Virus record (IMG/VR): IMGVR_UViG_3300031911_000003
Span: 1-64,000 of that record
Origin: a virus
Lineage: Duplodnaviria > Caudoviricetes
DNA: 64,000 nt
Strand: one strand, 5' to 3'
The notes under the pieces were generated by a model. The model saw only the letters and a program-made list of their open reading frames with translations, was not told the origin of the DNA and ran no database searches. This document shows, piece after piece, positions 5,750 to 51,940 of the stretch. The first letter of the stretch is position 1. Each line of letters opens with the position of its first letter. Position numbers and translations under genes: made by a program.

Positions 5750-6502
5750 TTAGAGCGTGAAGCCGACGAGAAAAAGAGAGAGATTGGCGGCGGAATTGGA
5801 CACCAAGTAATCGATGGTGCCGAGGTCTTGCGCTTCGAGCTGCATGGAGTAGCCAGCCGTCGCGCCCGCATCGAACAGGATCTGACCGTTCGTTGTCTGA
5901 ATCAGGATCGCAGATCGCAACGAGCCGTCCGCGACGAGACTCGCGATCAAGCGCACCTTAGAGCAGTTTGGCGGTCGGAGAGCACCATAGCTGACGGAGG
6001 TAAAGGTGGTGGCTGTTCCTGCAGCCAAGATGCGCGTCGAGATGTAAGCTCCAATGTAAGTAAACTCGAGTTCATTTTGGGATTGTGGTATGACGTTTCC
6101 TGACGCATTGGTGATGAACGTGCTGACCCACATAGATGAATCGTCGCCGCTGCGGTAGTTCAAGCCGGCGTCGGGTCCGTCGACCGTGACGGTGAAGGTG
6201 AGTGTGTTTGCCACGATCCGAGCGTAGACCCAGTAGCGGGTGCTGTTCGCGAGGCCGCCGCTAAGCGCGGCGGGGTTGATCGTCGTCTGGGTGAGGTTCG
6301 CGAGCGTGCGCCAGGCCGTCCCGTCGTACACCTGGATGGCGCCGAGCGGCTCGATCACCATCGACGTGTTGCTGACGAGCCGCGTGCGGCGCTTCACATC
6401 GAGATGTGCGCTCGCTTGCGAGCTACCCGTGTCGGCTGGCTCTTGTGACGGCGGCGAACAAGCCAGAAGCGTGAGAGCCAAACTTAGGATGTAGGTTCGC
6501 AT
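5750..6502 (-). CDS. lipoprotein carrying a tail-fibre-like beta domain (paralog of 6504..7388)
   Basis: Lipobox LLAC; end-to-end similarity to the upstream gene (VKRR, SM.I.PLG, TRY.VYA, VSTF.T..SG, IDYLV.N..A.LS....GFTL). Confidence 0.65.
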   Translation of the reverse strand: MRTYILSLALTLLACSPPSQEPADTGSSQASAHLDVKRRTRLVSNTSMVIEPLGAIQVYDGTAWRTLANLTQTTINPAALSGGLANSTRYWVYARIVANTLTFTVTVDGPDAGLNYRSGDDSSMWVSTFITNASGNVIPQSQNELEFTYIGAYISTRILAAGTATTFTSVSYGALRPPNCSKVRLIASLVADGSLRSAILIQTTNGQILFDAGATAGYSMQLEAQDLGTIDYLVSNSAANLSLFLVGFTL

Positions 6503-6503
6503 G

Positions 6504-7388
6504 TTAGAGCGTGAACCCCGCTACGTGGATCGACAGGCTGGCGTTCGCGTTGCCAACGAGGTAATCGATTTGGAGCCCATTCACCAATGCATAAGGCACG
6601 AAAGCCGACGATGTGATACCCGTCGCCGACGTCTCCTGAATGAACACGTTCGTTGGTGTAGAAGTCCGTAGGGTCGCGGTGGTATTGGTCGTAGACGACC
6701 AACTAGGTCGCAGCAATGCGATCTGCGCCTCCGCTGGTATGATTCCAGCCAACGATACAGTTGCAGCGACGGTTGAATTACCTGCGTTGAGGACTCGGTT
6801 ATTGATGGAGTATTCAAAGTACCTATATTCCCCATCTACTTGAGTGTATTCGAGAAGAGCTCCGGCAGAAGAGGTGTAGAACGTCGAGACGAACATGTTG
6901 TCCGTCGTAGTCGAATCGTAGTTGAGGCCGACTTCCGGCGCGTTAGTCGAGACGCGGAAGCCCACGGCGCCACCGTTGTTGTAGGCGTAGACGTAGTAGC
7001 GCGTCAGGTTCGCAAGCGAGCCGCCGGCTAGCGCGGTCGGATCGATCGTCGATGCGGTAAGGTGCGGCAGCGTCACCCAGTTGCCGCCGGAGGTGACCTG
7101 CACTCCACCGAGCGGTTGAATGATCATGGAAGTCGACGAGACGCCTTTCACACGGCGCTTCACGCCGCCGCCGTGCAGCATCTGGCGCGCGCCGACGAGG
7201 CCGTTGACGAGCGGCTGCAGTGCGAGATCGCGCATGTTGGCTGAGCTCAGCGGGTCGAAGTTCGCCGGTCCCTGGATGGTGTCGGCGGCGGGGAAGGCTC
7301 CGTTTCCTACAAGGGGCGTGGTCATATCTGGAGATGGTTGCTCGCAAGAGGCCAGGGCAAGTAGAAAGGCAAGGGCTACGCGGTTCAT
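6504..7388 (-). CDS. tail-fibre-like protein with N-terminal lipoprotein signal; second start at 7325
   Basis: GGAGG SD before ATG 7388, lipobox LASC; internal ATG 7325 has ACCATC 8 nt upstream; follows the baseplate wedge gene. Confidence 0.65.
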   Translation of the reverse strand: MNRVALAFLLALASCEQPSPDMTTPLVGNGAFPAADTIQGPANFDPLSSANMRDLALQPLVNGLVGARQMLHGGGVKRRVKGVSSTSMIIQPLGGVQVTSGGNWVTLPHLTASTIDPTALAGGSLANLTRYYVYAYNNGGAVGFRVSTNAPEVGLNYDSTTTDNMFVSTFYTSSAGALLEYTQVDGEYRYFEYSINNRVLNAGNSTVAATVSLAGIIPAEAQIALLRPSWSSTTNTTATLRTSTPTNVFIQETSATGITSSAFVPYALVNGLQIDYLVGNANASLSIHVAGFTL

Positions 7389-7474
7389 ATTTGTTCTCCT
7401 CCGATTGGAATCGGAAGAGTAACAGCTCTGGCGAACCGTTAACAGCTAGGGTTTCTACTAGTTCTGCTCGGTAA

Positions 7475-8230
7475 CTAGGGGTCGAACCCTACGACTTCGG
7501 GCGGTACAAAGCCTCGCTGCGCCCAGTGCGTCTCTCCGACGACGACGCGGTGCAAGTCGGCCTCGTCGCCATCAGCCCACTCGCCGACGTCCCAGCCGGG
7601 TTCGGTGTCCCAGAGCCGGCCGGCGCCTAGCCATATGTACAGGTACGTCGGAGTGTCGTGACCGGCGCGGAAGGTGCGCAGCAGGCGGCGGACTTGCTGC
7701 ACTTGAGCCTGCGTCGCAGTGGCGTCCCAGAGGCCGACGTCCCAGCCGGGTTCGGTGTCCCAGTAGCGCTTTTCGATCGGCAACGGCGGCTGGAGCAGCA
7801 CGTCGAACTGCGCCCAGACGTCACGGGCGAAAGCGTTGACGTAGGGCCACGGGCTCGGCGGTGGTGCTGGCGCATCGTAGCGACGCTTGACGACGACGTT
7901 CAAAAACCCCATGCGGCTGAGGTTGTATTGGTGGACGTGCTGCGAGCCGGCGACGCGCCACAACTCCCAGGCGGTGCGCAGGACCATGCGGTAGTCCGGC
8001 TCTGACTCGCCGATCGCCTGTTCGACGCCTCGCTCGGCCGCGATGTAGACGAGGCCGTCGGACGGTGCGAATTCCGGAAAGCGCGCGAGCACCGCCTGAT
8101 AGACGCGCTCGAAGCTCTCGTCCATGAGCGCGCCGAGAGTGCCCTGCCAGGCGTCGCCCGCCTCGTCCTTCAAGAAGGGCTTGTTCACCGCGACGCGGTA
8201 CGCCTGGAAGCTCTGGTCTGCGACAGCCAT
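7475..8230 (-). CDS. baseplate wedge / tail formation protein (P2 gpI / Mu gp48-like)
   Basis: APSDGLVYIAAERG, YRMVLRTAWELWRVAGS, WD-rich repeats; tail context. Confidence 0.65.
   Translation of the reverse strand: MAVADQSFQAYRVAVNKPFLKDEAGDAWQGTLGALMDESFERVYQAVLARFPEFAPSDGLVYIAAERGVEQAIGESEPDYRMVLRTAWELWRVAGSQHVHQYNLSRMGFLNVVVKRRYDAPAPPPSPWPYVNAFARDVWAQFDVLLQPPLPIEKRYWDTEPGWDVGLWDATATQAQVQQVRRLLRTFRAGHDTPTYLYIWLGAGRLWDTEPGWDVGEWADGDEADLHRVVVGETHWAQRGFVPPEVVGFDP
7583..7763. repeat. 31-bp direct repeat (7583-7613 and 7733-7763) encoding WDTEPGWDVG twice
   Basis: Identical gccgacgtcccagccgggttcggtgtcccag in both copies. Confidence 0.9.
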
Positions 8231-10012: not shown

Positions 10013-10498
10013 ATGCTCGAGATACGCATCAATAAAGTGATCGTAGACGAATCTCAGGATTCGAACCCAGACGTGCGCGGACCTTGGGATGATGTCAGCC
10101 ACAGCGAGGAGTTCCGCGGGCCTTCTGCCCAAGAACTGACGAAGGACATAGAGCAGCTCGTCGCTTGTGGTGGTCGGACATATTCGGTCTTGGGAGATAA
10201 GCTACGGAGGTATCACTTTTTCAACAACATCTTGCCGAAGCTACAAGAACTGATCACCAAGACATGGCCTCACTCCAGATTCACTTTGGAGATTTCCCCT
10301 GCGGAGCGGGGTTACAAGTTCAACCTGATGCGAAGCTACGGCGACAACTACTTCGACTGCCTGCCGCAGCCCTTAAATCGAACACCTCAGGTGTGGAGCC
10401 TGACGGAAATACTGTACTTCGTCGCGGAACTCCTCTGTAGGTTCTCCATAGACGAGGTGCCGAGTGAACTGATCGCGGAGCTGAAGGTGGTCCAATGA
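10013..10498 (+). CDS. hypothetical protein
   Basis: AAGGAGG SD before ATG 10013; lower-GC moron-like insertion. Confidence 0.6.
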   Translation: MLEIRINKVIVDESQDSNPDVRGPWDDVSHSEEFRGPSAQELTKDIEQLVACGGRTYSVLGDKLRRYHFFNNILPKLQELITKTWPHSRFTLEISPAERGYKFNLMRSYGDNYFDCLPQPLNRTPQVWSLTEILYFVAELLCRFSIDEVPSELIAELKVVQ

Positions 10499-10860
10499 AG
10501 GCCGAAAGTAACCAGCGAATAATTGATGACATCGAGAAGGCACTCAGCAAGCTATTGCACCGCCGAGTGCGGTGGCGTGACCTCCTGTCGCTCTTAGAGA
10601 CAGACGCGGAACTCCGACAGACGATCGTCACAGCTATCGACGAAGAAGCTTATAAGCGAGCGGGCAAGCGAGAGGCTGCGTCGACTGGCGTGCAGCCGGA
10701 GTTGCTTAGCGCGCTGTCAACACGGATCTGCAACTGCCTGGCAGCTGGCGGCATCTTGACCAAGAAGCAACTCGTGGAAACGTCCGACGCAGATCTACTC
10801 AGACTCAAGAACTTCGACCGTGCTTGTCTGCTTGAAGTTCGCCGCTTCTTAGCTTCTTAA
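10495..10860 (+). CDS. protein with C-terminal RNA polymerase alpha-CTD-like domain
   Basis: LSTRICNCLAAGGILTKKQLVETSDADLLRLKNFDRACLLEVRRFL matches the alpha-CTD pattern LSVRSxNCL...I.T..DL......LLK..NFG.KSL.EI. Confidence 0.75.
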   Translation: MKAESNQRIIDDIEKALSKLLHRRVRWRDLLSLLETDAELRQTIVTAIDEEAYKRAGKREAASTGVQPELLSALSTRICNCLAAGGILTKKQLVETSDADLLRLKNFDRACLLEVRRFLAS

Positions 10861-10882: not shown

Positions 10883-12088
10883 CTAGATGCTCTGCAGTAC
10901 GAGCTGCGAGGTCAGGACTGGCACCTGGTTGTACTGGATCGCCAGGTCCTGCGTCCCGCCGTTGATCTTCACGTCCGTCGCGTCGAGCACCACGCTGTTT
11001 GTCGTCCCCGCAGGTAGGCTTATGAGGCCGAGCACCCGCTCGTAGCTTACCCGGCCGAGCCTGCCGCCGCCGATCAGGAACGACCCGAACCAAGTGGCGA
11101 GGTTCCGGTTCACCGTGGCCAGGAACGCCGCGTTGTTGTAGGTAGCCTCGACGATGACCGTGCCGGACACCGTCACTGCAAGATTGACGGCGCTCGTCGC
11201 GGCGCAGCGCGCCGACTCCGATATGTTCGGGCCTCCCGTCTGCGTCGGCGAGAGGGCCAATTGGACTGCGGCTACTACCGACGGCGCTAGTGCTCCCGCC
11301 TCTCCCGCCACGATGACATCGACCCGCCCCGGATCGGTGAGGTCAAGGTTCGTCTCGACGCGGACGCGCGTCACCTCTTGACTGGCGTTGCGCGCGGCGG
11401 CTTCGTAGCCGGACTGCACCATCGTCGTGGGCTTAAACTGGCTGAGCGTCCCCCACTTCGTCACGTTGCGGCGCTGCAGGCTCGCGTCCTCCTCGGCTGG
11501 CGTGCCGCTCGCGCCGTACTGGTCTGCCTGCCAACCGGAAGGATTCGTCACCGTGACGCCCGCGAGGGTGCCGCGCACCCAGGTGTCGATCTCGCCGACG
11601 CCAGCGTTGTAGTCGCTGCCGACGTCCGCCGCCTCGACGTACACGCGAGCACTGCCACCGCGGGGGATCGTCACCGGATCGACCCCATTGGGCGCGACGC
11701 CTGAGTATTCCAGCCCACCGATGCCCACAGAGAACCCCACAGACAGCGGCGAGAACTTGAACGGCCCGAGGCCCCGCGGATCGGACAGCGTCACAAACCC
11801 ACTGGCCTTCACCCCAAGGAAGCGGAAGTCGTCAAAGAGCTGCTCGCTGAGGTTATCGAGGCCGGAGTCGCTCGCGGTCTGGTTGTAGCCCTGCGCGACG
11901 ACGTAGGCGCCGGCCTGGTTCTCCTGGTCCTGCGCGCGGCTCTCCACCTCGACGAGCGCGACGGGCAGCGACTCGGGTGCGTAGCTCTCGATCGCGGTGA
12001 AGCCAGCCGCCTCGAGCCTGTCGAAAGTCTCCTGTTTGACCTCTTCGTAGGTCGGCGGATTTAGTAGTTGCTCGACGGTAAGAGCCAT
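10883..12088 (-). CDS. baseplate J-like (Mu gp47) protein
   Basis: GLDNLSEQLFDDFRFLGVKASGFVTL, EEDASLQRRN..KW, PGRVDVIVAG. Confidence 0.85.
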   Translation of the reverse strand: MALTVEQLLNPPTYEEVKQETFDRLEAAGFTAIESYAPESLPVALVEVESRAQDQENQAGAYVVAQGYNQTASDSGLDNLSEQLFDDFRFLGVKASGFVTLSDPRGLGPFKFSPLSVGFSVGIGGLEYSGVAPNGVDPVTIPRGGSARVYVEAADVGSDYNAGVGEIDTWVRGTLAGVTVTNPSGWQADQYGASGTPAEEDASLQRRNVTKWGTLSQFKPTTMVQSGYEAAARNASQEVTRVRVETNLDLTDPGRVDVIVAGEAGALAPSVVAAVQLALSPTQTGGPNISESARCAATSAVNLAVTVSGTVIVEATYNNAAFLATVNRNLATWFGSFLIGGGRLGRVSYERVLGLISLPAGTTNSVVLDATDVKINGGTQDLAIQYNQVPVLTSQLVLQSI

Positions 12089-12118
12089 GGTAGAGATGGT
12101 GAAGAGGAGAATTCTCAG

Positions 12119-12567: not shown

Positions 12568-13284
12568 ATGGACGAACTCTTCGAGAGCATCGCGAAGGTG
12601 CAGGAGTCAATCGACAGGCGCAGCACGTCGGTAAACTACCGCGCGCTTTACCCCGCGACGATCATCTTCACCGACGGCGAGCTTGCGACCGTCGAGGCGC
12701 AGCTCGGCGCGACGATGATGACGCTCAGCGACTGCAAGGTGCGGCGCGAGGCGGGCTTGAAGAACGAGGCGACGGAAGGCAGCCCCTGCTTCGTCGGGTG
12801 GGAGGGTGGCGATCCGGCGCGGCGCTTCGTCCTCGTCGGCAGCTTCGGCGGCACTTCGGTGAAGTGGACTATCTCGGCGTCCGGCAGCGTCGTGTTCGAC
12901 GCTCCGGAGACGAATGCCAAGCACGATCTCGTCTCGGAGCACGAGGTCGGGCAGTCAGCAGGTCCGCTCGGACTCGTGCCGGGCGTGAACGTGAACCCGG
13001 CGACGTCCTCCGCGAAGGGAGACGACGCGGCCTTCGACCTCGAGCTGCAGCCCGTCGACAACACGAAGCCCATGGGGCCGCTGCTCGCCATCGTGACGTT
13101 TGGCCGCGCATTCGGCAGCACACCCAAGGCTGTGCTGCAGGTGAAGGACTTCATCACTGCTCCGACGAGCGCGTACGATGTCAAGTATTCAACTACACCG
13201 ATCTCGATCTCGATCACTGGAACCTTCCCGAATCCAACCGGCAAAACGGTCATAACGGCGTTCATCCGAGAGAATAAGCCGTGA
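12568..13284 (+). CDS. baseplate central spike (gpV/gp45-like OB-fold)
   Basis: YRALYPATI...CFVGWEGGDPARRFVL followed by a beta-rich C-terminus. Confidence 0.7.
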   Translation: MDELFESIAKVQESIDRRSTSVNYRALYPATIIFTDGELATVEAQLGATMMTLSDCKVRREAGLKNEATEGSPCFVGWEGGDPARRFVLVGSFGGTSVKWTISASGSVVFDAPETNAKHDLVSEHEVGQSAGPLGLVPGVNVNPATSSAKGDDAAFDLELQPVDNTKPMGPLLAIVTFGRAFGSTPKAVLQVKDFITAPTSAYDVKYSTTPISISITGTFPNPTGKTVITAFIRENKP

Positions 13285-13409
13285 TCCTCTTCGGCGGATC
13301 TGAGGTGTGGAAGACGAGCTCGCTCACGCGCCTGATGCTCCGCTTCTGGGACGCGATCGACGACGAGTGGCTGCGCCTGGCGGGCTACGTTTCCTGACCA
13401 TCTTCCGTC

Positions 13410-18778: not shown

Positions 18779-18804
18779 ACGAGAGATGGTCAGGTCAGCG
18801 ACGA
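18779..18804. repeat. 26-bp exact direct repeat, copy 1 (copy 2 at 43792-43817), containing the late motif
   Basis: acgagagatggtcaggtcagcgacga at both loci, each abutting a minus-strand start codon. Confidence 0.9.
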
Positions 18805-19515
18805 CTTGTAGAAGGCCGCGCCCTCGACGAAGTAGCGGATCTCATCCGCGTAGGTGAACCACTCGCCGGACTCGCGCAGGTGCGCGAACCGACGGTGCAG
18901 CGTCGTCTCTAGTTCGGTGCCTCCTGGCAGCGTCAGGAGCAGCGTGAGCTTAACGGAGGCCGACGTCTGAAGGGTGTCGAAGCGCTTCTCAACGTTGGAG
19001 CTCGTCCCGATCTTCAGCTTGCCGTCGGCGCTGAGCACGCAATAGACGCACTCACCGCCCTGGCTCAGCTTGTCGTCGGCCGCAGCGCGCCTGGCGCGCT
19101 CCACAGAGCGGTAGCGCTGCGTCTCTTGCCGCAAGAAGGCGTCTCGCAGCGCGCCATATTCTGCCGCCTCGTCGTCTCGTAGATCGGGAACTAATTCGTC
19201 GGCGTCCCGCACCGCCTGACCCGAGAACCGATCGAGCAGGCGCGCCGCGAAGTTGATTGCCGTGCTCTTGCAGTCGCACCTGTGTTCGCCGCCGCAGGGA
19301 CACCGCAGGATGAGAGTCTTGTCGACGCGCCGGACCTCGCAGCTTTGGCCCCGCACAGACAGGCGGTCGCTCCCCAGTCCTGTCGCCGACGAGCCGCAGG
19401 GCAGCGCGATATCGGCTCGATCTCGGGCCGCCCGCGCGAAGCAGGTGTGTTTGAGCACCCAACGCGCTTGCTTTTCTAAGAAAGGTCGGAAGTTGTGACT
19501 GTATCTGTGGTCCAC
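18790..19515 (-). CDS. GIY-YIG T5orf172/MUG113-domain protein
   Basis: VYCVLSADGKLKIGTSSNVEKRF..LQT, LETTLHRRFAHLR..GEWF. Confidence 0.8.
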   Translation of the reverse strand: MDHRYSHNFRPFLEKQARWVLKHTCFARAARDRADIALPCGSSATGLGSDRLSVRGQSCEVRRVDKTLILRCPCGGEHRCDCKSTAINFAARLLDRFSGQAVRDADELVPDLRDDEAAEYGALRDAFLRQETQRYRSVERARRAAADDKLSQGGECVYCVLSADGKLKIGTSSNVEKRFDTLQTSASVKLTLLLTLPGGTELETTLHRRFAHLRESGEWFTYADEIRYFVEGAAFYKSSLT

Positions 19516-19519
19516 TGCT

Positions 19520-19939
19520 TCACATATTGAGCGCCCGCTTTACCTCTTTGAGGAAGCGTTTCAGCTCGGCTTTCTTGATCTCGTCGAGCTTTCTCTGCCA
19601 CTTCTCGGGCAAGCCGCTCGTCGGCAGGTGCTCGTGCTCGCCGTCACCGTTTAAGAACTTGCTGTAGTAGACGTGCTGTCCGACGCGGACCCGACGCCCC
19701 TCGTCAACTACGACGACGTCGTAGCCGTCCATGAGTAGGCCAGAATCCAGCATCGGGGCGCCACCACTTCTCGGCGCAGGAAAGCGCTTACCATACACGT
19801 TTCGCCCCTGAACGTGTTGCGCTCGCAGTTCTTTGCGGACGTACTCAGCAAAGGTGCTAGCGATTCGCAGCTGTGCCTCTTTGGCTAGCCTGCGGATCGC
19901 CCCGACGCCTTCGCCCAGACCGCGCCTAGTGATCGCCAT
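19520..19939 (-). CDS. neck / tail-completion (virion morphogenesis) protein
   Basis: GRNVYGKRF, PMLDSGLL, VGQHVYYSKFLN, HLPTSGLPEKW. Confidence 0.6.
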   Translation of the reverse strand: MAITRRGLGEGVGAIRRLAKEAQLRIASTFAEYVRKELRAQHVQGRNVYGKRFPAPRSGGAPMLDSGLLMDGYDVVVVDEGRRVRVGQHVYYSKFLNGDGEHEHLPTSGLPEKWQRKLDEIKKAELKRFLKEVKRALNM

Positions 19940-20105
19940 GGCGCCGCCTCTCGAACGTCACTTCCTCGCCACTGCGCCGGAAGACGCCTGCGCGCCGTAG
20001 CCTCAGACCGTCCGTGATGGCACTGAGCACTGCGTCGATACAGAGCCGCGCCTGCGCCTCCGAGCAGCGCAGCGAGCGCGCTACGGCTTCGACAAGTTCC
20101 TTCAT
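19926..20105 (-). CDS. truncated HU/IHF-like protein (59 aa; not in ORF track)
   Basis: MKELVEAVARSLRCSEAQARLCIDAVLSAITDGLRLRRAGVFRRSGEEVTFERRR; ATGA-coupled to the upstream gene. Confidence 0.6.
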   Translation of the reverse strand: MKELVEAVARSLRCSEAQARLCIDAVLSAITDGLRLRRAGVFRRSGEEVTFERRRHGDH

Positions 20106-20844: not shown

Positions 20845-21098
20845 CAGGTCTTCACTCCTCCAAGCGCCGCGACGATGCGCGTGAGCGCCTTCACCGTCTG
20901 CGCGAGTTCGAGAACTATGCCAGCGCCGACTACCTGGTAGACGGCGCGCTCTTCGTCCGACTGCGTCGGCGTTATGTCCTTGCCGGTGAAGGCGAGCAAT
21001 CCCGCGAGCGAGTGGTACTGCGCCCGCATCACCGACTCGGGATCGGCATCGGGAATGCTCCCCGCCTGAACTTCAGCGAGGAGCTCTAGCGCTTTTTT
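20844..21098 (-). CDS. C-terminal extension of the tail assembly chaperone, reached by -1 frameshift
   Basis: The -1 frame is open from the A AAA AAG site: ...KALELLAEVQAG... Confidence 0.75.
   Translation of the reverse strand, partial: KKALELLAEVQAGSIPDADPESVMRAQYHSLAGLLAFTGKDITPTQSDEERAVYQVVGAGIVLELAQTVKALTRIVAALGGVKT
21057..21098 (-). other. programmed -1 frameshift: slippery A AAA AAG (21098-21092) plus stem-loop (21084-21057)
   Basis: Canonical heptamer in phase; hairpin GCUCCUCGCUGA...UCAGGCGGGGAGC starts 7 nt downstream. Confidence 0.8.
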
Positions 21099-21628
21099 AC
21101 GCGGTCGCCTCCGTCGGCGCCGAGCGACATGAACCATCTGGTCGGCAGCACCTGCTCGACGGCGTCGCACATGCGGCGGCGCAAGAGCTCTAGCTTCGCG
21201 CGATCGGGGAACAGCACGGCGTTCAAGAAGTACTCACCTGCCGCGCGCCCGGCCTCGTCGGCGTCCCGACTCTTGGCCTTCCGCTCGAGGTCGCGGCGCA
21301 TGGCCTTGACCTCCGTCGGCGTCATGCGCTTCACGATCGCCCCAGCGTAGAAGGTCGGGTGGACGATGGCGCGCACCACGTCGCGCTCGTCGGCACCCTT
21401 AACCGTCTGGTTCTCGAGGCGCAGCCGCTCGTAGGCGGCTTCGGCGTCGGCGACGGCGGCGTCGTACGCCTCTTCCGTCACCTCGTCCTGCGCGTCGTCT
21501 TCCTGCTCGGGCAGCCAGCCGGCGTGCGTCGCCGCCAGGCACAGCACCCAGCGCCGCGTGCCCTTTAGCTGCGCCCACTCCTCGACAGTCCGAATTTCCG
21601 GTTGACGTTTCGTATCCGTTTCGCTCAT
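21086..21628 (-). CDS. tail assembly chaperone
   Basis: Lies between tube and tape measure; ends GTA AAA AAG CGC TAG; ACCATC 7 nt upstream. Confidence 0.8.
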   Translation of the reverse strand: MSETDTKRQPEIRTVEEWAQLKGTRRWVLCLAATHAGWLPEQEDDAQDEVTEEAYDAAVADAEAAYERLRLENQTVKGADERDVVRAIVHPTFYAGAIVKRMTPTEVKAMRRDLERKAKSRDADEAGRAAGEYFLNAVLFPDRAKLELLRRRMCDAVEQVLPTRWFMSLGADGGDRVKKR

Positions 21629-21686
21629 GATGCGGATGGTAGGAGGTACCAGATGACAGACAAATCAACGACTCAAGGATTTAAAA

Positions 21687-21926
21687 ATGATCATCGTTAA
21701 TCGAAAGGCTTTACTTATGAGTTTGGCTGATGCAAAACGCTTTGCCGACTCGAAGTCGACGATGCCGTTTGTGATCGGTGTGAACGGCAAGTACGCGCTG
21801 CAGGCTCTCGAGCGCATCGACAGCGCTCTGGTCTGGATCGGCATGAACGACGAGCTTGATCCGCTCGTGTTCAAGGCGAGTCGTTGCGCGGAGGATCTCC
21901 ACGTCGTCATGCCGATGAGGCTGTGA
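21687..21926 (+). CDS. 79-aa mini DnaN (beta sliding clamp) fragment protein
   Basis: N-terminus VNRKALLMSL...SKSTMP resembles the DnaN start; C-terminus IGVNGKYALQAL...VWIGMND.LDPLVF...HVVMPMRL resembles the DnaN end. Confidence 0.65.
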   Translation: MIIVNRKALLMSLADAKRFADSKSTMPFVIGVNGKYALQALERIDSALVWIGMNDELDPLVFKASRCAEDLHVVMPMRL

Positions 21927-21976: not shown

Positions 21977-22474
21977 CTAGCCGGCGTTGACGCCGACGAT
22001 GTCGGCGAACTGCGGGATGATCTTGCCACCCGAGCCGAACTCGATGTAGCCGCAGTAGCAGGGGATGTCCATACCGAGCACCGCCGGCCCGGTCGAGCTG
22101 TCGAAGTTCCACTCGTTGACGATTACGTACAACGTGTCCGTCTCGACGACAGCGGCCTCGGGGTGGACGAAGCTCACCGTGATGACGATGAAGCCCTCGA
22201 ACATGCCCTTGCCAGGGATCGAGGCCACCTGCCGGAAGGCGTCACGCGCCGCCCGGTTGATGCTGAAGCTCGCCTCGTAGCTGAGCGCCCCGCGCGTCAC
22301 GCCCTGCGGCAGCGGCGAGGTACCGCGGGCCTCCTCTCGCGAAACCTTGGCCGAGTAGCTGATCTTGGTGAACTGCGTGAAGAGCCGGTCGCCGGGAAAC
22401 TTCGCTTCGATGTCTGCGTGCTGATACTGAACGTTGTTGAAGCCGGGAGCGAACCGGCGGGTAAGCTGCGCCAT
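21977..22474 (-). CDS. tail tube protein
   Basis: ATG 22474 directly after the sheath stop; FTKISYS..V.REEARGT..LPQGVTRG..SYEASF. Confidence 0.8.
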   Translation of the reverse strand: MAQLTRRFAPGFNNVQYQHADIEAKFPGDRLFTQFTKISYSAKVSREEARGTSPLPQGVTRGALSYEASFSINRAARDAFRQVASIPGKGMFEGFIVITVSFVHPEAAVVETDTLYVIVNEWNFDSSTGPAVLGMDIPCYCGYIEFGSGGKIIPQFADIVGVNAG

Positions 22475-22479
22475 CTGAG

Positions 22480-25320
22480 TTACACTCCCACTGTGAAGGT
22501 GTCTGAGATCGTGACCGCGAAGCCGATGGTTCCATCGAGCTTGAGCACCTTGGCGAGCGGCACCATGGTGAGCGACCAGGCGACGGTCAGCGTTCGCGCG
22601 GTCTGCTCGATGCGCGAGACGCCGAAGGTGAAGGCCGACACGTGGTTCACGCCGTTGTCGTTGATGAGGCCTCCGTTGTTGAGATCGCCCCGCACGCGTC
22701 GCTCGATCTGCTGCGCCTGCACCTCGGCGAGCGTGCCCGTCGCAGGATCGGTCAGCACGTTGGCGTTCAAGATGACGGCCAAAGAGCGATTGACGCGGCG
22801 GAACGCCCTGTTCATGACGCGCCGTCGCTCCCAGAAGATGAAGTCGTTGCCGTCGTCTACGAGGTTCAGCGTCTGCCGGATGAATACGCCATCGTACTCG
22901 ACGAGCGTACGGCCCGTGGTGACGTTCTGCGCGTGCAGCTCGAGGAGCGCCGAATCCGACTCCCACAGCGCGGCCCGCTCCTCGGTGCCTTCGGCTACGG
23001 TGTGGAGTCCCGTACCGGGGATCGCGAACTGGGTGCCGTCGGCTGTGAGTACGCTGCAGAGCGTCTGGTTCGGCGACTGGCTGATCACTACGTTCATGCA
23101 GCGCGCGAGATCCAGACACGCCCGGCTCTTCTGCATCTGGCAGCCGTACAGCGTCACGATCGTGTCCTGCTCACCTCCCGCGTAGTTGACGATGCCGCCC
23201 GAGCTGCGCGGCGAGGGCAGCGCGGCGTTGAAGTTCGCGGCCCACAAGAGGTCGTCAGACTGCAGCTGCGTCACGCGGTAGAGGCCCTGCACGGTTCCCC
23301 AGAGCGGCACCTTCTTGCTGTCCTTGACGTCGCGGAGCCACGCCTCGAAGACCTGGTAGGTGGCGTTGTCGCAGTCGTCCTGTACAAGGTGGACGTGCTC
23401 GATGTTCTGTAGGGTCTTCAAGTACGTCGACTTCAGCGTCTCGAGCGCGGCGGAGAGTCCCGCCAGGTCGAAGCGCGGCGGCGTCGTGTAGCTCGTCCAC
23501 TCGTCTCCCGCCTCGACGGCGACGGGCAGCGAGACGAACTCATCCCACGCTCCAGCGATCCCGAGGCCCGTCCCGGTGACGGTTGGCGCCGTCACGAGCG
23601 CCAACACGGAGGCGGGCGCGGTGCCGTAGAGGGTCACGAGGTCGTTCGGCGTCGAGGTTTGCGCGCCGTTGGTGTCGGTGGCGAGCGTTACCGTGACGTC
23701 GAGCCCCGCAGCAGTGATGCCCGCGGCGGTGCTCTGACCCGAGGCGACTTGACGGACGCGGACACCCGGTTTCTTGGCCGTCCAGAGCGTACCGCCGTTC
23801 GGCGCGAGCCCCGGCCCAGCACTGGCGACGAGCCCTAGGCCCGTGCCTACGGTGTCCACTGCGTTTACGAGGAGCCGCGCGGCGAGCGTGCCGGCCGAGA
23901 CGTCCGTCTCGAAGAAAGCCTTCGCGGCGGCTCCCGTCGTCGTCGCGGCGGCGTCCACACCGCCCGCGAGCGGCGTCGCCCCGTGCGTGTCGCCCGGCGC
24001 GGCGAGGACGTTGCCGTTCGTCCCGCCGGTAGCGGTGACGCTGCCGAACGTCGTGCTGACTGGGAAATGGGCCTTGACGTTGGCGACGGTAGTCACGCCG
24101 TCGTCGTAGTGGACGGTGATCGCGTTGCCGATGACAGACACGGCGTCTGTCCCATCCTCCACGAATGCCACGGTGATCGAGTTTCCGCCGGCGCCGGCCG
24201 TCGCAGAAGCGAACGTCAGCCCAGCGAGGTTGCCGCCGAAGCCCGCGTAGCTCGCCGCCACCGCGCCGCTCGTCGCGGTGGTGAAGGTGACGGCCGAGCC
24301 AACGACGCCGAAGCTCGGCGTCGCGTTGTCCGTCGTCGGGACATCGACCTCGATCGAGGCTCCGGCTGTGGCGAACGTCCAGACGGTGTCCCCGTTGACG
24401 GTCGCGCCCGCCGCGCGATAGGCACCGTAGAGCGTCTTGGCGACGGTGCCCTGAGCAAAAGTCGCGCGGATGCCGGTGTGCCAGCGGGTGAATCCGCCCG
24501 GATGGGTGTACAGGTCCAGCTCGCCCAACTGCGGGATCGTGAAGGCGGGGGACCACGTCACACCGTCGTCCGCCGACCAGCGCACCTGCGGCTGCTGCGC
24601 GCCAGAGACGGTGATCTGCCCGCCGCGCGTCGACTGGAAGCGCAGGTGGTCGAAGCGGTCTAGCGGCCCGGCGTACTCGAAGCTGAGAGCCGTCGTGCCG
24701 ACGGGGTCGACTGGGGCGCCGCCCGAAGTCTGCGTGCGGTAGCGCACCATGGCCTTCACGCGCTCGCCGGCCGCGGTGCCGAAGGTACCGGGGCCGTTCA
24801 CGGCGTAGGCCGCCTGCCGCGCCTGCCCGGCCTCGTCGAGGTAGTCGACGACGGCGACGTGTGCGACGGTGCCGGCGCCGTGCGTGCTCGTGAGCGGGAG
24901 CGGTGATGGGGGCGTCGCGAACCCGCCCTGGCGATCGACAGCCGCACCGCCGGGGATCGGGTCGGGAGCGGCGGCGAGCCCATCGAAGGTGGCCGCCGCG
25001 AGCGACAAGACCGAAGGCGATGGGGCGGAACCCGCGGGGCGCTTGACGACGGAGCCGAACGTCCCCGGCTCGGCGGCCAGCACCTGGAAGCCGTAGACCG
25101 TGCGGTTGCAGTTCGCGATGTGCGGCCCGCTGTCGCTCGCGAGGGGGCCGACGCCGAGGCGGTTCACGGTCGCAAGTTCCCGCATGACGACGGGCTTGCC
25201 AACGATGTACGCCGAGGCGACGCCGATCTTCAGGATAGTGCCTTCCTGCGTGTCGGCTACGGTGGACAGGTTGCCGTTGAGCTCCCTGATGTTCAAGGCC
25301 GGGTTCGGAGTGCCGCTCAT
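22480..25320 (-). CDS. contractile tail sheath protein (946 aa, large insertions)
   Basis: C-terminal YDGVFI....NLVDDGNDFIFWERRRVMNRA...sheath-like region; upstream of the tube gene. Confidence 0.85.
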   Translation of the reverse strand: MSGTPNPALNIRELNGNLSTVADTQEGTILKIGVASAYIVGKPVVMRELATVNRLGVGPLASDSGPHIANCNRTVYGFQVLAAEPGTFGSVVKRPAGSAPSPSVLSLAAATFDGLAAAPDPIPGGAAVDRQGGFATPPSPLPLTSTHGAGTVAHVAVVDYLDEAGQARQAAYAVNGPGTFGTAAGERVKAMVRYRTQTSGGAPVDPVGTTALSFEYAGPLDRFDHLRFQSTRGGQITVSGAQQPQVRWSADDGVTWSPAFTIPQLGELDLYTHPGGFTRWHTGIRATFAQGTVAKTLYGAYRAAGATVNGDTVWTFATAGASIEVDVPTTDNATPSFGVVGSAVTFTTATSGAVAASYAGFGGNLAGLTFASATAGAGGNSITVAFVEDGTDAVSVIGNAITVHYDDGVTTVANVKAHFPVSTTFGSVTATGGTNGNVLAAPGDTHGATPLAGGVDAAATTTGAAAKAFFETDVSAGTLAARLLVNAVDTVGTGLGLVASAGPGLAPNGGTLWTAKKPGVRVRQVASGQSTAAGITAAGLDVTVTLATDTNGAQTSTPNDLVTLYGTAPASVLALVTAPTVTGTGLGIAGAWDEFVSLPVAVEAGDEWTSYTTPPRFDLAGLSAALETLKSTYLKTLQNIEHVHLVQDDCDNATYQVFEAWLRDVKDSKKVPLWGTVQGLYRVTQLQSDDLLWAANFNAALPSPRSSGGIVNYAGGEQDTIVTLYGCQMQKSRACLDLARCMNVVISQSPNQTLCSVLTADGTQFAIPGTGLHTVAEGTEERAALWESDSALLELHAQNVTTGRTLVEYDGVFIRQTLNLVDDGNDFIFWERRRVMNRAFRRVNRSLAVILNANVLTDPATGTLAEVQAQQIERRVRGDLNNGGLINDNGVNHVSAFTFGVSRIEQTARTLTVAWSLTMVPLAKVLKLDGTIGFAVTISDTFTVGV

Positions 25321-25327
25321 GCCTCCC

Positions 25328-25343
25328 GATGGTCGGGACCATC
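25328..25343. promoter_or_regulatory. back-to-back ACCATC motifs (GATGGTC-GG-GACCATC) serving divergent starts 25320(-) and 25350(+)
   Basis: Inverted repeat; spacers of 8 and 7 nt to the two ATGs. Confidence 0.7.
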
Positions 25344-25349
25344 CTGATT

Positions 25350-25691
25350 ATGAGGATCGCACCGCAGGTCACGCCGCCCGCCTCTCCAGACGCAGTCAAG
25401 GATCTATCGCCGCCAGGTTCCATACTCCTATCAGGGACTAACGCGCTGCAGCTCACGGCGAAGGTGACCGCCGGCACGCTGACGCTCGAGCCGCGCTTCT
25501 GGGATGGCTCGAGCTGGGTGCCGCTGCGGGGGGACGCCGTCGTTGGCTCGTCCGCCGTCGTCGCCGACTTCGCCACCGCGCCCATCGCCTCGCTGACCAT
25601 GCGCAGGGCGGCGGAGCCCCGGTGGTGGGTCGTGATCCAGTCCGGCGGGGGGACCTTGGACTACTGCGACATCTCGGAGGCGGTGAAGTAG
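25350..25691 (+). CDS. small virion structural protein (beta-rich)
   Basis: ATG 25350 with ACCATC 7 nt upstream; coupled to 25692. Confidence 0.55.
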   Translation: MRIAPQVTPPASPDAVKDLSPPGSILLSGTNALQLTAKVTAGTLTLEPRFWDGSSWVPLRGDAVVGSSAVVADFATAPIASLTMRRAAEPRWWVVIQSGGGTLDYCDISEAVK

Positions 25692-30827: not shown

Positions 30828-30960
30828 GCTCTATATAAATTTCCAAATCCAATTCTATATATCTATATTCTACTCCATCTACTACACCATTAACTAAATA
30901 TAAGAAATATAAGAAGAATATAAGAGGGAGAAGAAAGGGAGGAGTGCAGTAGGGAAAAGT
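30828..30960. other. very AT-rich, strand-asymmetric segment (candidate replication origin) with three ATATAAGA repeats
   Basis: Pyrimidine-rich half followed by a purine-rich half; ATATAAGA at 30898, 30907 and 30918. Confidence 0.45.
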
Positions 30961-38672: not shown

Positions 38673-40316
38673 ATGAACTTTCACGTTTGGGGTTCTCTGG
38701 CATCGAAAATCGCGGAGCAGCGGTATCTACATCCGGGCGAAACGTGGGTGGTGGGTCTAGCACCCCGCGTCTCAACAAACACTTTTTCAACTGTCAAATC
38801 GCGAGGCTGCCCGGTTCCAGAGGGGGAGGTGACTCGCATGATCGCCAACCGCCAGTTTCTTCCCGGGGGTCGGTATCTGTACGCCTGCGGAAGACCGCTG
38901 CACCAAACGCAGAATTGTCTGTTGTTCTTAGTCGAGGATTCGCGTGAGGGGTGGGCCGACCACTACTACAAGCACGTCATGGGCTTGTCGACGGGTGCTG
39001 GCATCGGAAGTGTCTACAGCAACGTTCGGCAGAAAGGCGCAAAGCTGAACCGTACGGGGGGTGTGGCTGGTGGGCCAATAAACTTGATGCTCGGCATTAA
39101 TGAAGCAGCTCACACTGTACGCCAAGGAGGCGATCGGCGTGCGGCGCTTTGGGCGGGCCTCCATTGGTGGCATCCAGATGCGCTGGAGTATTGCTCGGTG
39201 AAAGATTGGTCTGAGGATGTGCGCCAACGGAAAGCAGAAAATTGGGAAACGCCAGCGCCGCTCGATTACACGAATCAGAGCGTCTGCTACGACGACGAAT
39301 TTTTCCAAGCTGTCGCTGAGCGAAGCACCGAGAAGCGACGTCAAGCTGACGCCGTATATTGGAAAAACGTGGCTCATGCGCTCCGCACAGGCGATCCCGG
39401 CTTATCTGTCGATTGCGGCGTCAATGCAGGCGAGTGGCTTCGTAACGCCTGCACGGAAGTCAGCTCTCGCGACGACAGCGATATTTGCAACATCGGAAGC
39501 CTGAATTTGGCTCGGTACGAGACACTCGCAGAGTTCGAACGCGACCTACCCTGCGCCGTAGCGTTCTTACTCGCTGGCAGCGAATACAGCGACGTACCGT
39601 ACGAGAAAGTTCGCGTTGTTCGTCAGAAGAACCGTCGGCTCGGTTTGGGCCTTATGGGTGTTCACGAGTGGCTGCTTCGACGCGGCAAAAAGTACGGCCC
39701 AGATGTTGAACTAGGTCTGTGGCTGGCGGTCTACGCGCGATCAACCGAGATCGCTGCACGCCTTGCTGACGAGTGGAGTCTTTCACGTCCCGTGAAAACT
39801 CGAGCCATGGCGCCCAATGGCACGATTGGCCTCGTGGCCGAGACAACTACTTGCCTAGAACCGCTTCTCTGCGTAGCGAAAAAACGCCGCGTAAAGCAAG
39901 GAGATGAGACGTGGGCGCAATACAGCGTCGATCCTGTCGCTGAGCGCCTCATAAACGAGGGTGTCGAGATCGGCAACATCGAAACGGCCTACGATCTCTC
40001 TGGTTCACTCGCGGGAATCGAGCGTCGCGTCGCTTTTCAGGCGTGGTTTCAACAATTCGTCGATCACGGCATCGCATCGACGATCAACATCGCTTCGTGG
40101 GGTAGCGCGTCAAACAATGAAGACACCGTGAAGCCGTTCGGCGAGATGTTACTCAAATATTTACCACATCTGCGCGGCATCACCGTATATCCTGACGGTG
40201 CGCGATCGGGACAACCAATTGTTCCTGTGAGCTACGAAACGGCGCGCAAACATGGGGAAGAGATCGTTTACGAGTCGGCTGATGTCTGTGAGATGCGCGG
40301 AGGAGGCTGTGGCTAG
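38673..40316 (+). CDS. nrdJ: class II (B12-dependent) ribonucleotide reductase
   Basis: FLPGGRYL, QNC, RQGGDRRAA, NACTE, CNIGSLN, RRLGLGLMG, APNGTIG, DHGIASTIN, C-terminal Cys pair; no beta subunit in the window. Confidence 0.85.
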   Translation: MNFHVWGSLASKIAEQRYLHPGETWVVGLAPRVSTNTFSTVKSRGCPVPEGEVTRMIANRQFLPGGRYLYACGRPLHQTQNCLLFLVEDSREGWADHYYKHVMGLSTGAGIGSVYSNVRQKGAKLNRTGGVAGGPINLMLGINEAAHTVRQGGDRRAALWAGLHWWHPDALEYCSVKDWSEDVRQRKAENWETPAPLDYTNQSVCYDDEFFQAVAERSTEKRRQADAVYWKNVAHALRTGDPGLSVDCGVNAGEWLRNACTEVSSRDDSDICNIGSLNLARYETLAEFERDLPCAVAFLLAGSEYSDVPYEKVRVVRQKNRRLGLGLMGVHEWLLRRGKKYGPDVELGLWLAVYARSTEIAARLADEWSLSRPVKTRAMAPNGTIGLVAETTTCLEPLLCVAKKRRVKQGDETWAQYSVDPVAERLINEGVEIGNIETAYDLSGSLAGIERRVAFQAWFQQFVDHGIASTINIASWGSASNNEDTVKPFGEMLLKYLPHLRGITVYPDGARSGQPIVPVSYETARKHGEEIVYESADVCEMRGGGCG

Positions 40317-41230
40317 TTTGCAAGTTCCCGACGCGCGGCCTCGAACTCCGCCGCGACTACCAGTGCGCCGAGTGCCAGCCAGCGACCGATGCGGCGCAGC
40401 CCGCAGGAAGCTTCTAGGACCGCGCACAGAGCGATCGAGAAGGCCAGCCAGCCCGACCAGCCGAGTGGCCCCTTGGACGCGGCCAGAGCGCACAGAAGGG
40501 ACGCCCCGCGATAGGCTGGGTACACGACGCTTTCCCTCGTGCCGTGCAAGACGAGCCGCAGCCCAAACAGCCCGCAGCCCATCGAGGCAAGAGCAACGAG
40601 CCACAAGCGCCAGTCGGCGAGCGGCGCCGCAGGCGCAAAGCTGCCCGCCGCAGCCAGGCACAGCGTCAGTCCCATGACCGCGACCTGCCCGGCGCCGAAG
40701 AAGCCAGGCTTCAAGCCACGATCACCCTTGGCCATCCGGACGGCCCGGAGCTTCAGACGTTGCCCGAGTACGTAGGTGCAGGCGAGGAGCAGCGGAATGG
40801 GGAGCCAGCGCAGAGGCTTGTGCAGCGCAGCTAGGAGCACGGCGGCAAAGACGGCTGCGGAGAGCGCAAGGCGCTGCCTCAGTGGGCGACGATCAAGCGG
40901 ATCGGGGAAGAGCAGGCACCCGCCCTTGCCGGCGACGACGGCGACGAGCGACGACGGCATGAGCAGCGCCAGCGTTTCGGAGGTGAGGACCAGCGTCGAG
41001 GCGGCGGCCGAGAGCAGTTCGGCCCGCGTCGGTGGCCACATGCGCGGCAGCGGTGCGCGCAATCGGTAGACGAAGCAGCCGAGCGCGTACCAGAGGGGGA
41101 TCGCCAGCGCATAGACCTGGAAAGCGCCGAGTGGGTGATGCGCGCCGCCGGCTAGGCCGCAGAGCTTGGCGTAGGTGAAGGAGCACAAAGCGTAACCGAG
41201 GAGCAGGAACCCGACGCGTGGCTCGTTCAT
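40313..41230 (-). CDS. polytopic membrane protein (DMT/EamA-like?)
   Basis: About 10 hydrophobic segments; family assignment uncertain. Confidence 0.5.
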   Translation of the reverse strand: MNEPRVGFLLLGYALCSFTYAKLCGLAGGAHHPLGAFQVYALAIPLWYALGCFVYRLRAPLPRMWPPTRAELLSAAASTLVLTSETLALLMPSSLVAVVAGKGGCLLFPDPLDRRPLRQRLALSAAVFAAVLLAALHKPLRWLPIPLLLACTYVLGQRLKLRAVRMAKGDRGLKPGFFGAGQVAVMGLTLCLAAAGSFAPAAPLADWRLWLVALASMGCGLFGLRLVLHGTRESVVYPAYRGASLLCALAASKGPLGWSGWLAFSIALCAVLEASCGLRRIGRWLALGALVVAAEFEAARRELAN

Positions 41231-41322
41231 GCCTGGATGTTCGCAACCCACGGTGCTTGCGTCTAGCTCTCGAGTCGGAGTAGGTTCAATCGGCTATTAG
41301 GTTTGAACAGGAGCAAACAGAA

Positions 41323-42189
41323 ATGTCACTGAGAGTCCTTCGATCTGAGCAAGACGCCTCCGTCAACTTCGTCGAAGAGCAGCTCGCCGGCTTCCTCGAG
41401 GCACGTTACGTGCGGCGTCGCGCTGACTACTTCGTCTGCTATCTGAGCAGTCACAGCGGATGCAATCGTGGCTGCGAATTCTGCCACCTGACCGCGACAG
41501 GGCAGACGAGTTTTGCGCCCTCGACGATCAACGACTTCGAGAGCCAGGCACTGTCGGTGCTCCGGCACTATCGCAGAGAGTCGCCGGCCCGCTACATGCA
41601 CTTCGCCTTCATGGCCCGAGGTGAGCCGCTGGCGAACCCGCATCTGCTCGAGCGCGGGCAGGAGCTGCTGATCCGACTCGGCAACCTAGCGCGCGACGAG
41701 GGGCTGCCCTCGAAGTTCTGCGTCTCGACGATCATGCCGCAAACGCTGCGCAAGCCGCTCGTCGACGTCTTCGGCTTCGTCTCGCCGACGATCTACTACA
41801 GCCTCTACTCCGTAGAGCCGGCCTTCCGCGAGCGCTGGCTGCCCACGGCGAAGCCGATCGAGGCCGCGCTGCAAGAGCTCGCAGACTACCAGCGCTTCAG
41901 CAAGAAGATCCTCAAGATCCACTTCGCCCTCATCGAGGGACAGAACGACTCGGCCGACCAGGTCTGCAAGATGTGCGACGCGCTCGACGAGCGCGGCCTA
42001 ATCTGCGAGTTCAACCTCGTCACCTACAACCCAGCGACCGCCGCGCAGGGGCGGGAGAGCGCGCCCGAAGTCATCGCCGAGCGCCTCGCGTACATCTTGG
42101 AGCGCTTTGTCGGAAGGGTGAAGGCAGTCAAGCGCGTTGGCTTCGACGTCAAGGCGAGCTGCGGGATGTTCGTCGGTGGTGAGAAATGA
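41323..42189 (+). CDS. RlmN/Cfr-like radical SAM enzyme (divergent)
   Basis: SSHSGCNRGCEFC, FMARGEPLAN, EFNLVTYNP, GFDVKASCGMF; AGGAG SD. Confidence 0.8.
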   Translation: MSLRVLRSEQDASVNFVEEQLAGFLEARYVRRRADYFVCYLSSHSGCNRGCEFCHLTATGQTSFAPSTINDFESQALSVLRHYRRESPARYMHFAFMARGEPLANPHLLERGQELLIRLGNLARDEGLPSKFCVSTIMPQTLRKPLVDVFGFVSPTIYYSLYSVEPAFRERWLPTAKPIEAALQELADYQRFSKKILKIHFALIEGQNDSADQVCKMCDALDERGLICEFNLVTYNPATAAQGRESAPEVIAERLAYILERFVGRVKAVKRVGFDVKASCGMFVGGEK

Positions 42190-42689
42190 GCGCCTCAAAT
42201 CTCATCGTCGAGTTCAGACTCCTCCATCCAGATGCGAAGCGTCCCGAGTACCAGACCGGTGGCGCGAGTGGGATGGATCTCTACGCTGATGGTAAGGAAG
42301 CTGAAAATCAGTATGGTGGATTAGACGTTCACTGGACTTGTTTAAAGCTCAGTCCCGGTTGGATCTGGCGCATTTCAACGGGCGTCGCCATCTTGATTCC
42401 CACCGGCTGGGAGGCACAGATCCGGCCGCGCTCGTCGCTATCTGCAAAGGGCATCCTATGCCAGCTCGGCACGATCGACAGCGACTACCGGGGCGAATTG
42501 AAGGTTGTCCTGGTGAACCTGAGCGGCGAGCCGTTCGCAGTGCGCCGTGGTGAACGCATCGCGCAGCTAGTCTTCGCGCCGGTCGGGCGCGCGGCGCTTC
42601 AGGAGGTGCGCGAGTTCAGCAGCCGGACGAAGCGCGGCGAGGGTGGATTCGGGAGTACGGGTAAAATGAGGTCAGAATGCAAAGTCTGA
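42186..42689 (+). CDS. dut: trimeric dUTPase
   Basis: GASGMDL, IRPRSSL, GTIDSDYRGE, GERIAQL, RGEGGFGSTG. Confidence 0.95.
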   Translation: MSASNLIVEFRLLHPDAKRPEYQTGGASGMDLYADGKEAENQYGGLDVHWTCLKLSPGWIWRISTGVAILIPTGWEAQIRPRSSLSAKGILCQLGTIDSDYRGELKVVLVNLSGEPFAVRRGERIAQLVFAPVGRAALQEVREFSSRTKRGEGGFGSTGKMRSECKV

Positions 42690-43791: not shown

Positions 43792-43817
43792 ACGAGAGAT
43801 GGTCAGGTCAGCGACGA
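43792..43817. repeat. 26-bp exact direct repeat, copy 2 (copy 1 at 18779-18804)
   Basis: acgagagatggtcaggtcagcgacga. Confidence 0.9.
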
Positions 43818-51686: not shown

Positions 51687-51940
51687 CGCCCGAAGATGGT
51701 CGCCGAGCTTGACGCAGCGACGGGAAGTACCGAAGATACTTCAATGCTTGCAGCAAATATAACTTGCGACACCTATGTAGGTGGTTTGTTCATAAGCTTG
51801 TGTGAAGACGCAAGCATTCGCGCTGACTTGTGGACTTGGCATTTCCTCTATCATTCAATCGATCGTTGGTCATTTCCATGGAACGGGTTCCTAGAGTTAT
51901 TCGTCCACCGAGAGTGGAAGCGTTTGTCGGTGGTGTTTTC

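Follow-up and report, generated by a model that had tools for sequence, protein, structure and literature searches.

Does the tail region of this phage carry a working fragment of a DNA sliding clamp or the remnant of a deleted clamp gene? The question is raised by a 79-codon ORF that encodes the two ends of a clamp joined to each other. The window analysed here comprises bases 1-64000 of a 75,195-bp IMG/VR record with a CheckV completeness of 61%. The phage is a high-GC myovirus with genes for a tail sheath, tube, baseplate wedge, tape measure, Mu-like portal and Mu-like major head protein. It also encodes ribonucleotide reductase, ThyX, dUTPase, a helicase and a family-A DNA polymerase (PolA), the last being cut by the record end about 35 codons before its stop.

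Two-piece homology and expression signals of the mini-clamp ORF

As read from the sequence, the ORF (21687-21926, + strand) runs from an ATG at 21687 to a TGA at 21924-21926 and encodes 79 aa; the identical protein (P0001) was found on three contigs. BLASTP against P0002, a 467-aa phage clamp, gave two separate matches. Residues 1-29 of the mini-protein aligned with P0002 residues 18-46 (E = 8e-11), with AKRFADSKSTMP identical, and residues 27-79 aligned with P0002 residues 415-467 at 64% identity (E = 2e-20). This two-piece pattern was repeated with P0003, whose residues 28-55 matched the N-terminal piece (E = 3e-9). In a multiple alignment with the long phage clamps the mini-protein showed one gap of several hundred columns, and over all 79 retained columns it was 60-66% identical to them. 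PHROG 947 ('DNA polymerase processivity factor') matched residues 25-79 (E = 4.7e-8) and clamps in the PDB matched at E = 8e-4, which together with BLASTP establishes homology to beta clamps. The Pfam match to PF02768, covering residues 23-78 and profile positions 66-121, was weak and below cut-off (E = 1e-3), and neither PF00712 nor PF02767 matched the mini-protein. All family matches were to clamps.

The first-pass annotation, made from the sequence alone, had described the ORF as the N-terminus of DnaN joined directly to its C-terminus. The two BLASTP matches and PHROG 947 bear this out: at the level of sequence comparison, the mini-gene is confirmed to encode the first 26 residues of a sliding clamp fused in frame to the last 53, and its split architecture, as judged from these alignments, is far beyond chance. 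The annotation's estimate of some 290 absent internal residues was too low. Compared with P0005, the nearest full-length clamp (454 aa), residues 27-401 are missing, or approximately 375 residues. A contiguous DnaN C-terminal fragment, as suggested by a phmmer search of the PDB that matched the last 74 residues of Rickettsia clamps (query 5-78 aligned to 313-386), was rejected. The close relatives' own N-terminus aligns with the first 29 residues, with 12 consecutive identities, and the residues that precede the C-terminal piece in these relatives are unrelated to the N-terminus of the mini-gene.

Codons 1-26 (21687-21764, +) correspond to the start of clamp domain I, that is strand beta1, helix alpha1 and the KSTM loop. 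This assignment is based on BLASTP to P0002 and P0003, the multiple alignment and the structural model, which places a strand at residues 2-5 and a helix at 6-21. Codons 28-79 (21768-21923, +) encode the last beta-alpha-beta-beta-beta motif of domain III and end in VVMPMRL, based on the C-terminal BLASTP match, PHROG 947, the PF02768 positions and the PDB clamps. Between the two pieces lies a proline codon, CCG (21765-21767, +), which was identified as the junction by codon-level comparison with the relatives' loci L004, L006 and L007. In these relatives the N side reads ACG ATG CCG|ATC and the C side CCC|TTC GTC, and the mini-gene reads ACG ATG CCG TTT GTG, so that 2-3 nt of microhomology are common to both endpoints. 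Endpoints that have a proline codon in common are the signature of a microhomology deletion.

The reading frame is intact and preceded by a Shine-Dalgarno-like AAGGA (21675-21679, +) 7 nt before the ATG, as first annotated. Further upstream lies a sigma-70-like promoter match, TTGACG-18-CATGAT (21602-21631, +), which agrees with the consensus at 9 of 12 positions and was identified by consensus match only; it was the one such site upstream of the ORF, against 0.1 expected in shuffles. A 15-codon upstream ORF (21653-21700, +) was also read from the sequence. A strong GGAGG (21642-21646) lies 6 nt upstream of its ATG, and this ORF overlaps the start of the mini-clamp ORF by 14 nt in a different frame. 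The GGAGG is the complement of sequence beside the late box of the neighbouring 180-aa gene and may thus be coincidental. No terminator-like site was found for the mini-gene, its 3' spacer showed no significant structure (z = -0.4), and no flanking repeats marking an insertion were found.

Full-length relatives and genomic location

The search for short forms was exhaustive at the level of cluster representatives. HMMER over all 1.84 billion of them returned, besides the mini-protein, full-length clamps of 447-536 aa. P0005, P0002, P0006 and P0007 were among these strong matches, the single exception being P0008, a 245-aa partial sequence. This search found no second short form combining the N- and C-terminal pieces: three short matches (50, 56 and 94 aa) were C-terminal only and lacked the N-terminal segment. 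A word-based search amongst proteins of similar length also returned the mini-protein only, which is thus a singleton among approximately 15 billion proteins. Searching longer proteins gave clamps of 467-511 aa with all three Pfam clamp domains. The relatives are therefore full-length and no conserved short form was found, which is the pattern of a gene remnant. The first-pass annotation had proposed the search for same-length homologues and had held that its functional reading would fall if relatives carried a full-length dnaN at this position and short homologues did not exist. Full length in the relatives and the lack of short homologues were both borne out, results that concern the length of the relatives' genes.

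By sequence, the long clamps are a family of their own, a distinctive phage type from which the mini-gene appears to descend. In this family (P0005, P0002, P0004, P0003, P0006 and P0007, and loci L004, L006 and L007) the N-terminal motif RKALL..AKRFAD.KSTMP and the C-terminal motif PF.IGVNGKY...WIGMN.ELDP...VVMPMRL are common with the mini-protein. A zinc-ribbon-like CxxC...C...C insert in domain I is present in five of six aligned members, P0003 being the one without it, and many members carry an N-terminal extension of 17-30 residues. The ORFs as called at L004:1895-3544 and L006:2966-4702 encode 549 and 578 aa, respectively. P0005 starts at the same position as the mini-protein (MINISRKALL and MIIVNRKALL). 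Unlike these three-domain proteins, the mini-gene lacks the Cys-rich insert, the whole of domain II and the greater part of domains I and III. No source names the long clamps beyond 'DNA polymerase III subunit beta'; within the libraries searched they form an undescribed family, apparently from phages of Myxococcota. Among cellular proteins, Myxococcota DnaN comes closest to them (30-40% identity), suggesting that the host of this phage is probably a myxobacterium.

Close relatives of the phage were scarce. Scans of viral contigs with the mini-protein, P0005, the tube and the 180-aa gene gave no close relative. The clamp alignment found relatives at only 22-24% in such contigs and the tube alignment a single relative at 59% (L109), in which the tube gene is followed by a small antisense ORF and by neither a clamp nor the 180-aa gene. 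In GenBank phages only distant clamps were found (27-31% identity) and no relative of the sheath, and 401 Myxococcota genomes gave one weak tube match. The DNA-level relatives of the mini-gene are approximately 60% identical in protein and are saturated at synonymous sites.

The mini-gene lies on the strand opposite to its neighbours. On one side is the tail tube gene (21977-22474, -; 165 aa), assigned by PHROG 4579 'tail protein' and homologues P0054-P0064, followed by the 946-aa sheath gene (22480-25320, -; PHROG 907, DUF2586). On the other is a 180-aa gene (21086-21628, -) whose position matches that of a tail assembly gene. The first-pass annotation had placed the ORF antisense between tube and chaperone genes; the tube side stands, whilst the 180-aa gene has no family match and the chaperone label rests on its position only. 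A late box, ACCATC-N6-ATG (21626-21640, -), lies at the start of the 180-aa gene and shows that another late unit opens just past the mini-gene. The motif ACCATC-N5-7-ATG occurs 12 times in the window against 0.92 expected, a count reached in none of 100 shuffles, and precedes many structural genes. The motif could serve as a late promoter or else as a signal for translation. Other sites include 25318-25333 (-), 25338-25352 (+), 12086-12100 (-) and 51684-51700 (-). No late motif precedes the mini-gene, which thus sits at a late-unit boundary, a typical moron slot.

This is away from the usual locus of the clamp family. In L006 tblastn placed the clamp between homologues of p312, a conserved 312-aa gene (40313-41251, -), and the dUTPase gene (42186-42689, +) together with 42757-43791 (-). 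L007 keeps the side with dUTPase and 42757-43791, and in L004, L005 and L008 the p312 side only was confirmed. The slot between p312 and dUTPase is variable: relatives have the clamp here, in L004 also a DUF4942 gene, and in this phage it holds a radical-SAM gene (41323-42189, +; Pfam, tblastn synteny). The mini-gene is approximately 20 kb from this slot. There are other clamp locations. In L018 a full-length clamp (6357-7628, +) lies antisense in the head-tail module of a metagenomic myovirus and adjoins the sheath gene, a precedent that makes an in-situ deletion plausible. The clamp of L017, which is more distantly related, is encoded directly after the PolA homologue; as our record ends inside PolA, a second full-length clamp past the record end is possible. 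A close relative of the phage appears to keep the whole gene, since both P0005, known from a sole contig of 76,524 bp, and P0056, a tube homologue 84% identical to ours, are on a 76,524-bp contig, provided that these two records are one contig.

Two further ORFs of the window resemble parts of DNA-binding or transcription proteins. A 121-aa protein (10495-10860, +) gives, over its last 47 residues, a hit to PF03118, the C-terminal domain of the RNA polymerase alpha subunit (E = 7.3e-10, above cut-off). Within the late operon, a 59-aa ORF (19926-20105, -) matches the first 34 positions of the HU/IHF profile PF00216 weakly and below cut-off (E = 0.0023), and could on this match be another truncated DNA-binding protein. 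The phage also carries an exact 45-bp direct repeat of coding sequence, 13281-13325 being identical to genome positions 69989-70033, 56.7 kb away.

Sequence constraint, predicted fold and retained clamp surfaces

The mini-gene was compared with the full-length clamps for signs of decay. In a leave-one-out analysis of invariant columns, the mini-protein deviated at one of 17 (E15D) and the full-length members at none or one. On a tree built from the 79 columns, the mini-protein had a shorter terminal branch (0.22) than P0005 (0.32) or P0003 (0.43), and nine private residues compared with 12-16 in full-length members on long branches. GC3 was 0.54 over the first 26 codons and 0.83 thereafter, against phage gene averages of 0.69 and 0.83. 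The mini-gene thus showed no sign of relaxed constraint, whether as loss of invariant residues, a long branch or eroded codon bias. Only a recent deletion or selection would explain this absence of decay, and it fits both equally. With an ORF that shows no sign of decay, the mini-protein could have a function.

AlphaFold2 supplied with the alignment of full-length relatives gave a compact model with a mean pLDDT of 73.7. The single-sequence run was poor (pLDDT 44), indicating that the confidence of the alignment-based model is borrowed from the relatives. The model comprises a strand (2-5), a helix (6-21), a poorly defined linker (22-33), a second helix (34-43) and three strands, and all 79 residues superpose on a single clamp domain, domain III of E. 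coli beta at residues 255-366 (Z of about 9, rmsd of about 3 A). The strand and helix from the N-terminus of domain I stand where domain III has its own counterparts, and the three-stranded meander of the second sheet is absent. As modelled, the mini-protein would at best be one clamp domain without one of its two sheets.

Residues were mapped to E. coli beta with an offset of +287, deduced from the ungapped Pfam and PDB alignments, which makes the retained parts equivalent to E. coli 1-28 and 314-366. Published residue lists for subsite I, subsite II and the dimer interface (PMC11139829) were then applied. By this putative mapping, seven of the eight subsite II residues are kept (N33, Y36, L57, M75, P76, M77 and R78), as are two of the 12 subsite I residues (V73 and M75) and none of the seven at the dimer interface (E. 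coli I78, R103, F106, I272, L273, E298 and E304). Subsite I is the main hydrophobic anchor for clamp-binding motifs, and a complete partner-binding pocket of subsites I and II would thus be lacking. A six-domain dimeric ring is built from three tandem domains per protein; the 79-aa mini-protein has one incomplete domain. With the interface residues and most of subsite I lost, it can provide neither a ring, nor a native ring interface, nor a full partner pocket.

The first-pass annotation had favoured a clamp mimic that poisons host rings or sequesters clamp partners or the clamp loader. This found no support, as the interface and 10 of the 12 mapped subsite I residues are deleted. Mimicry of a host clamp is further disfavoured by kinship, the mini-protein being 60-66% identical to phage clamps and 30-40% identical to DnaN of the presumed host, Myxococcota. 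Compared with bacterial DnaN more widely (E. coli beta, PDB 2POL, and Myxococcota), it belongs to the same fold family and keeps MPMR(L) and the equivalents of N320 and Y323, with 30-45% identity between cellular DnaN and its C-terminal piece. Unlike the DnaN ring it has no ring, dimer interface or subsite I, and one sheet of one domain. In E. coli, an internal start in dnaN also gives rise to beta*, a shortened clamp that retains two whole domains and can still assemble a ring. The mini-protein would likewise be a natural shortened product of a clamp gene, but it keeps less than one domain and its shortening lies in the genome, not in an internal start. The Twort phage protein Gp168 (PDB 7EVP) blocks the DNA channel of the clamp, and derivation from a clamp is not reported for it (PMC11139829). 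Both are small phage proteins; that the mini-protein targets clamps was the proposal of the first-pass annotation.

Origin of the mini-gene and its possible function

On balance, and with confidence slightly above even, we read the mini-gene as a recent remnant, an in-frame internal deletion derivative of a phage beta clamp gene. The parent would have been a member of the long clamp subfamily (447-536 aa, with the Cys-rich domain I insert in most members). One deletion of about 1.1 kb, with a proline codon common to its endpoints, would have fused domain I, cut in the loop that follows helix alpha1, to domain III at the strand preceding its last helix, leaving the native start, ribosome-binding site and stop in place. 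The deletion is probably young. Its product may still be translated, presumably without a selected function. On this reading a full-length gene would once have stood at this locus. A remnant is favoured by the singleton status of the protein, by the full-length gene in the apparent close relative and by the loss of every element required for known clamp activities, and is further supported by the exact 45-bp ectopic copy, a sign of recent illegitimate recombination in this genome. The in-frame deletion relic that the first-pass annotation had offered as a fallback is therefore the best fit to the data, with full-length relatives and no short homologue in the databases searched. If so, the locus is a clean snapshot of phage gene loss, caught after one in-frame microhomology deletion and before any decay.

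Some observations count against a remnant. The mini-gene shows no decay, it keeps a start codon, Shine-Dalgarno sequence and promoter-like site, and its alignment-based model is compact. The stand-alone alpha C-terminal domain (E = 7e-10) and the weak match to the HU N-terminus could reflect a strategy rather than an accident. These same features are what make a selected mini-protein a serious, if less probable, alternative. It would be a pared-down clamp domain that is translated, perhaps under the control of a promoter of its own and independently of the late programme. The C-terminal edge strand of a clamp normally pairs with domain II, and helix alpha1 lines the clamp channel. A selected mini-protein might act through subsite II (the Gln/Leu half), this edge strand and the basic residues of helix alpha1. 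It might bind clamp-binding motifs weakly; alternatively it might cap or co-fold with a clamp protomer, likelier the phage's than the host's, and so tune replication. Seven of eight subsite II residues on the putative mapping, a position typical of morons with a small antisense ORF likewise following the tube gene of L109, and the other isolated domains of host-like DNA and RNA machinery in this phage all fit selection. Against it, the protein is alone among some 15 billion and the apparent close relative retains the full-length gene. It has lost its main anchor, subsite I, along with every ring-interface residue, the missing sheet should leave a hydrophobic surface exposed, the confidence of the model derives from the full-length relatives, and identity to presumed host clamps is only 30-40%. 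The more specific proposal of a stable single-domain mini-clamp that docks on a clamp protomer or partner and modulates replication, as one of a set with the alpha C-terminal domain and HU pieces, is unlikely. No clamp-derived microprotein was found in the protein searches or the literature searched. If functional, the mini-protein would be the first, and a natural minimal fragment with subsite II only, relevant to clamp interactions and clamp-targeting inhibitors.

Two other origins were weighed against a deletion. The mini-gene could be an ectopic patchwork, pieced together from both ends of a complete clamp gene that the phage still carries at another site; by analogy with L017, this could be immediately beyond the record end, downstream of PolA. 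Illegitimate recombination would be the mechanism, as for the 45-bp copy, a Walker-A fragment after the spike gene which likewise lies at a late-gene boundary. The record is incomplete and ends inside PolA, and the usual clamp slot by dUTPase is occupied by another gene here, both of which leave room for such a source. However, no source copy exists within the 75-kb record, and the L017-type clamp is 42% identical to the C-terminal part, compared with 60-66% for the long family. Two in-frame captures with a native start are also less parsimonious than one deletion, and we regard a patchwork as very unlikely. Collapse of a full-length gene by the metagenome assembler is less probable still, to the point of being hardly credible. 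The record is a metagenomic viral contig, and the three contigs with the identical protein may stem from the same reads passed through three pipelines. Nevertheless, the 2-3 nt at the junction are far too few for an assembler collapse, the sequence is identical in three independent assemblies, and the frame and flanks are clean. A single deletion that left a remnant is thus still the origin we prefer.

Other features of the phage sequence were recorded alongside. Between the tape measure and tail-assembly genes, a 241-aa protein is encoded (18790-19515, -) whose C-terminal domain has several PHROG matches. Two of the matched families are named endonuclease or homing endonuclease and the best match is to an unnamed family (E = 2e-16), so that on sequence similarity the product is possibly a mobile endonuclease within the tail module. 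Positions 30862-30949 and genome positions 68539-68626 share an exact AT-rich repeat of 88 bp, and a 26-bp repeat with a late motif inside is found at 18779-18804 and 43792-43817.
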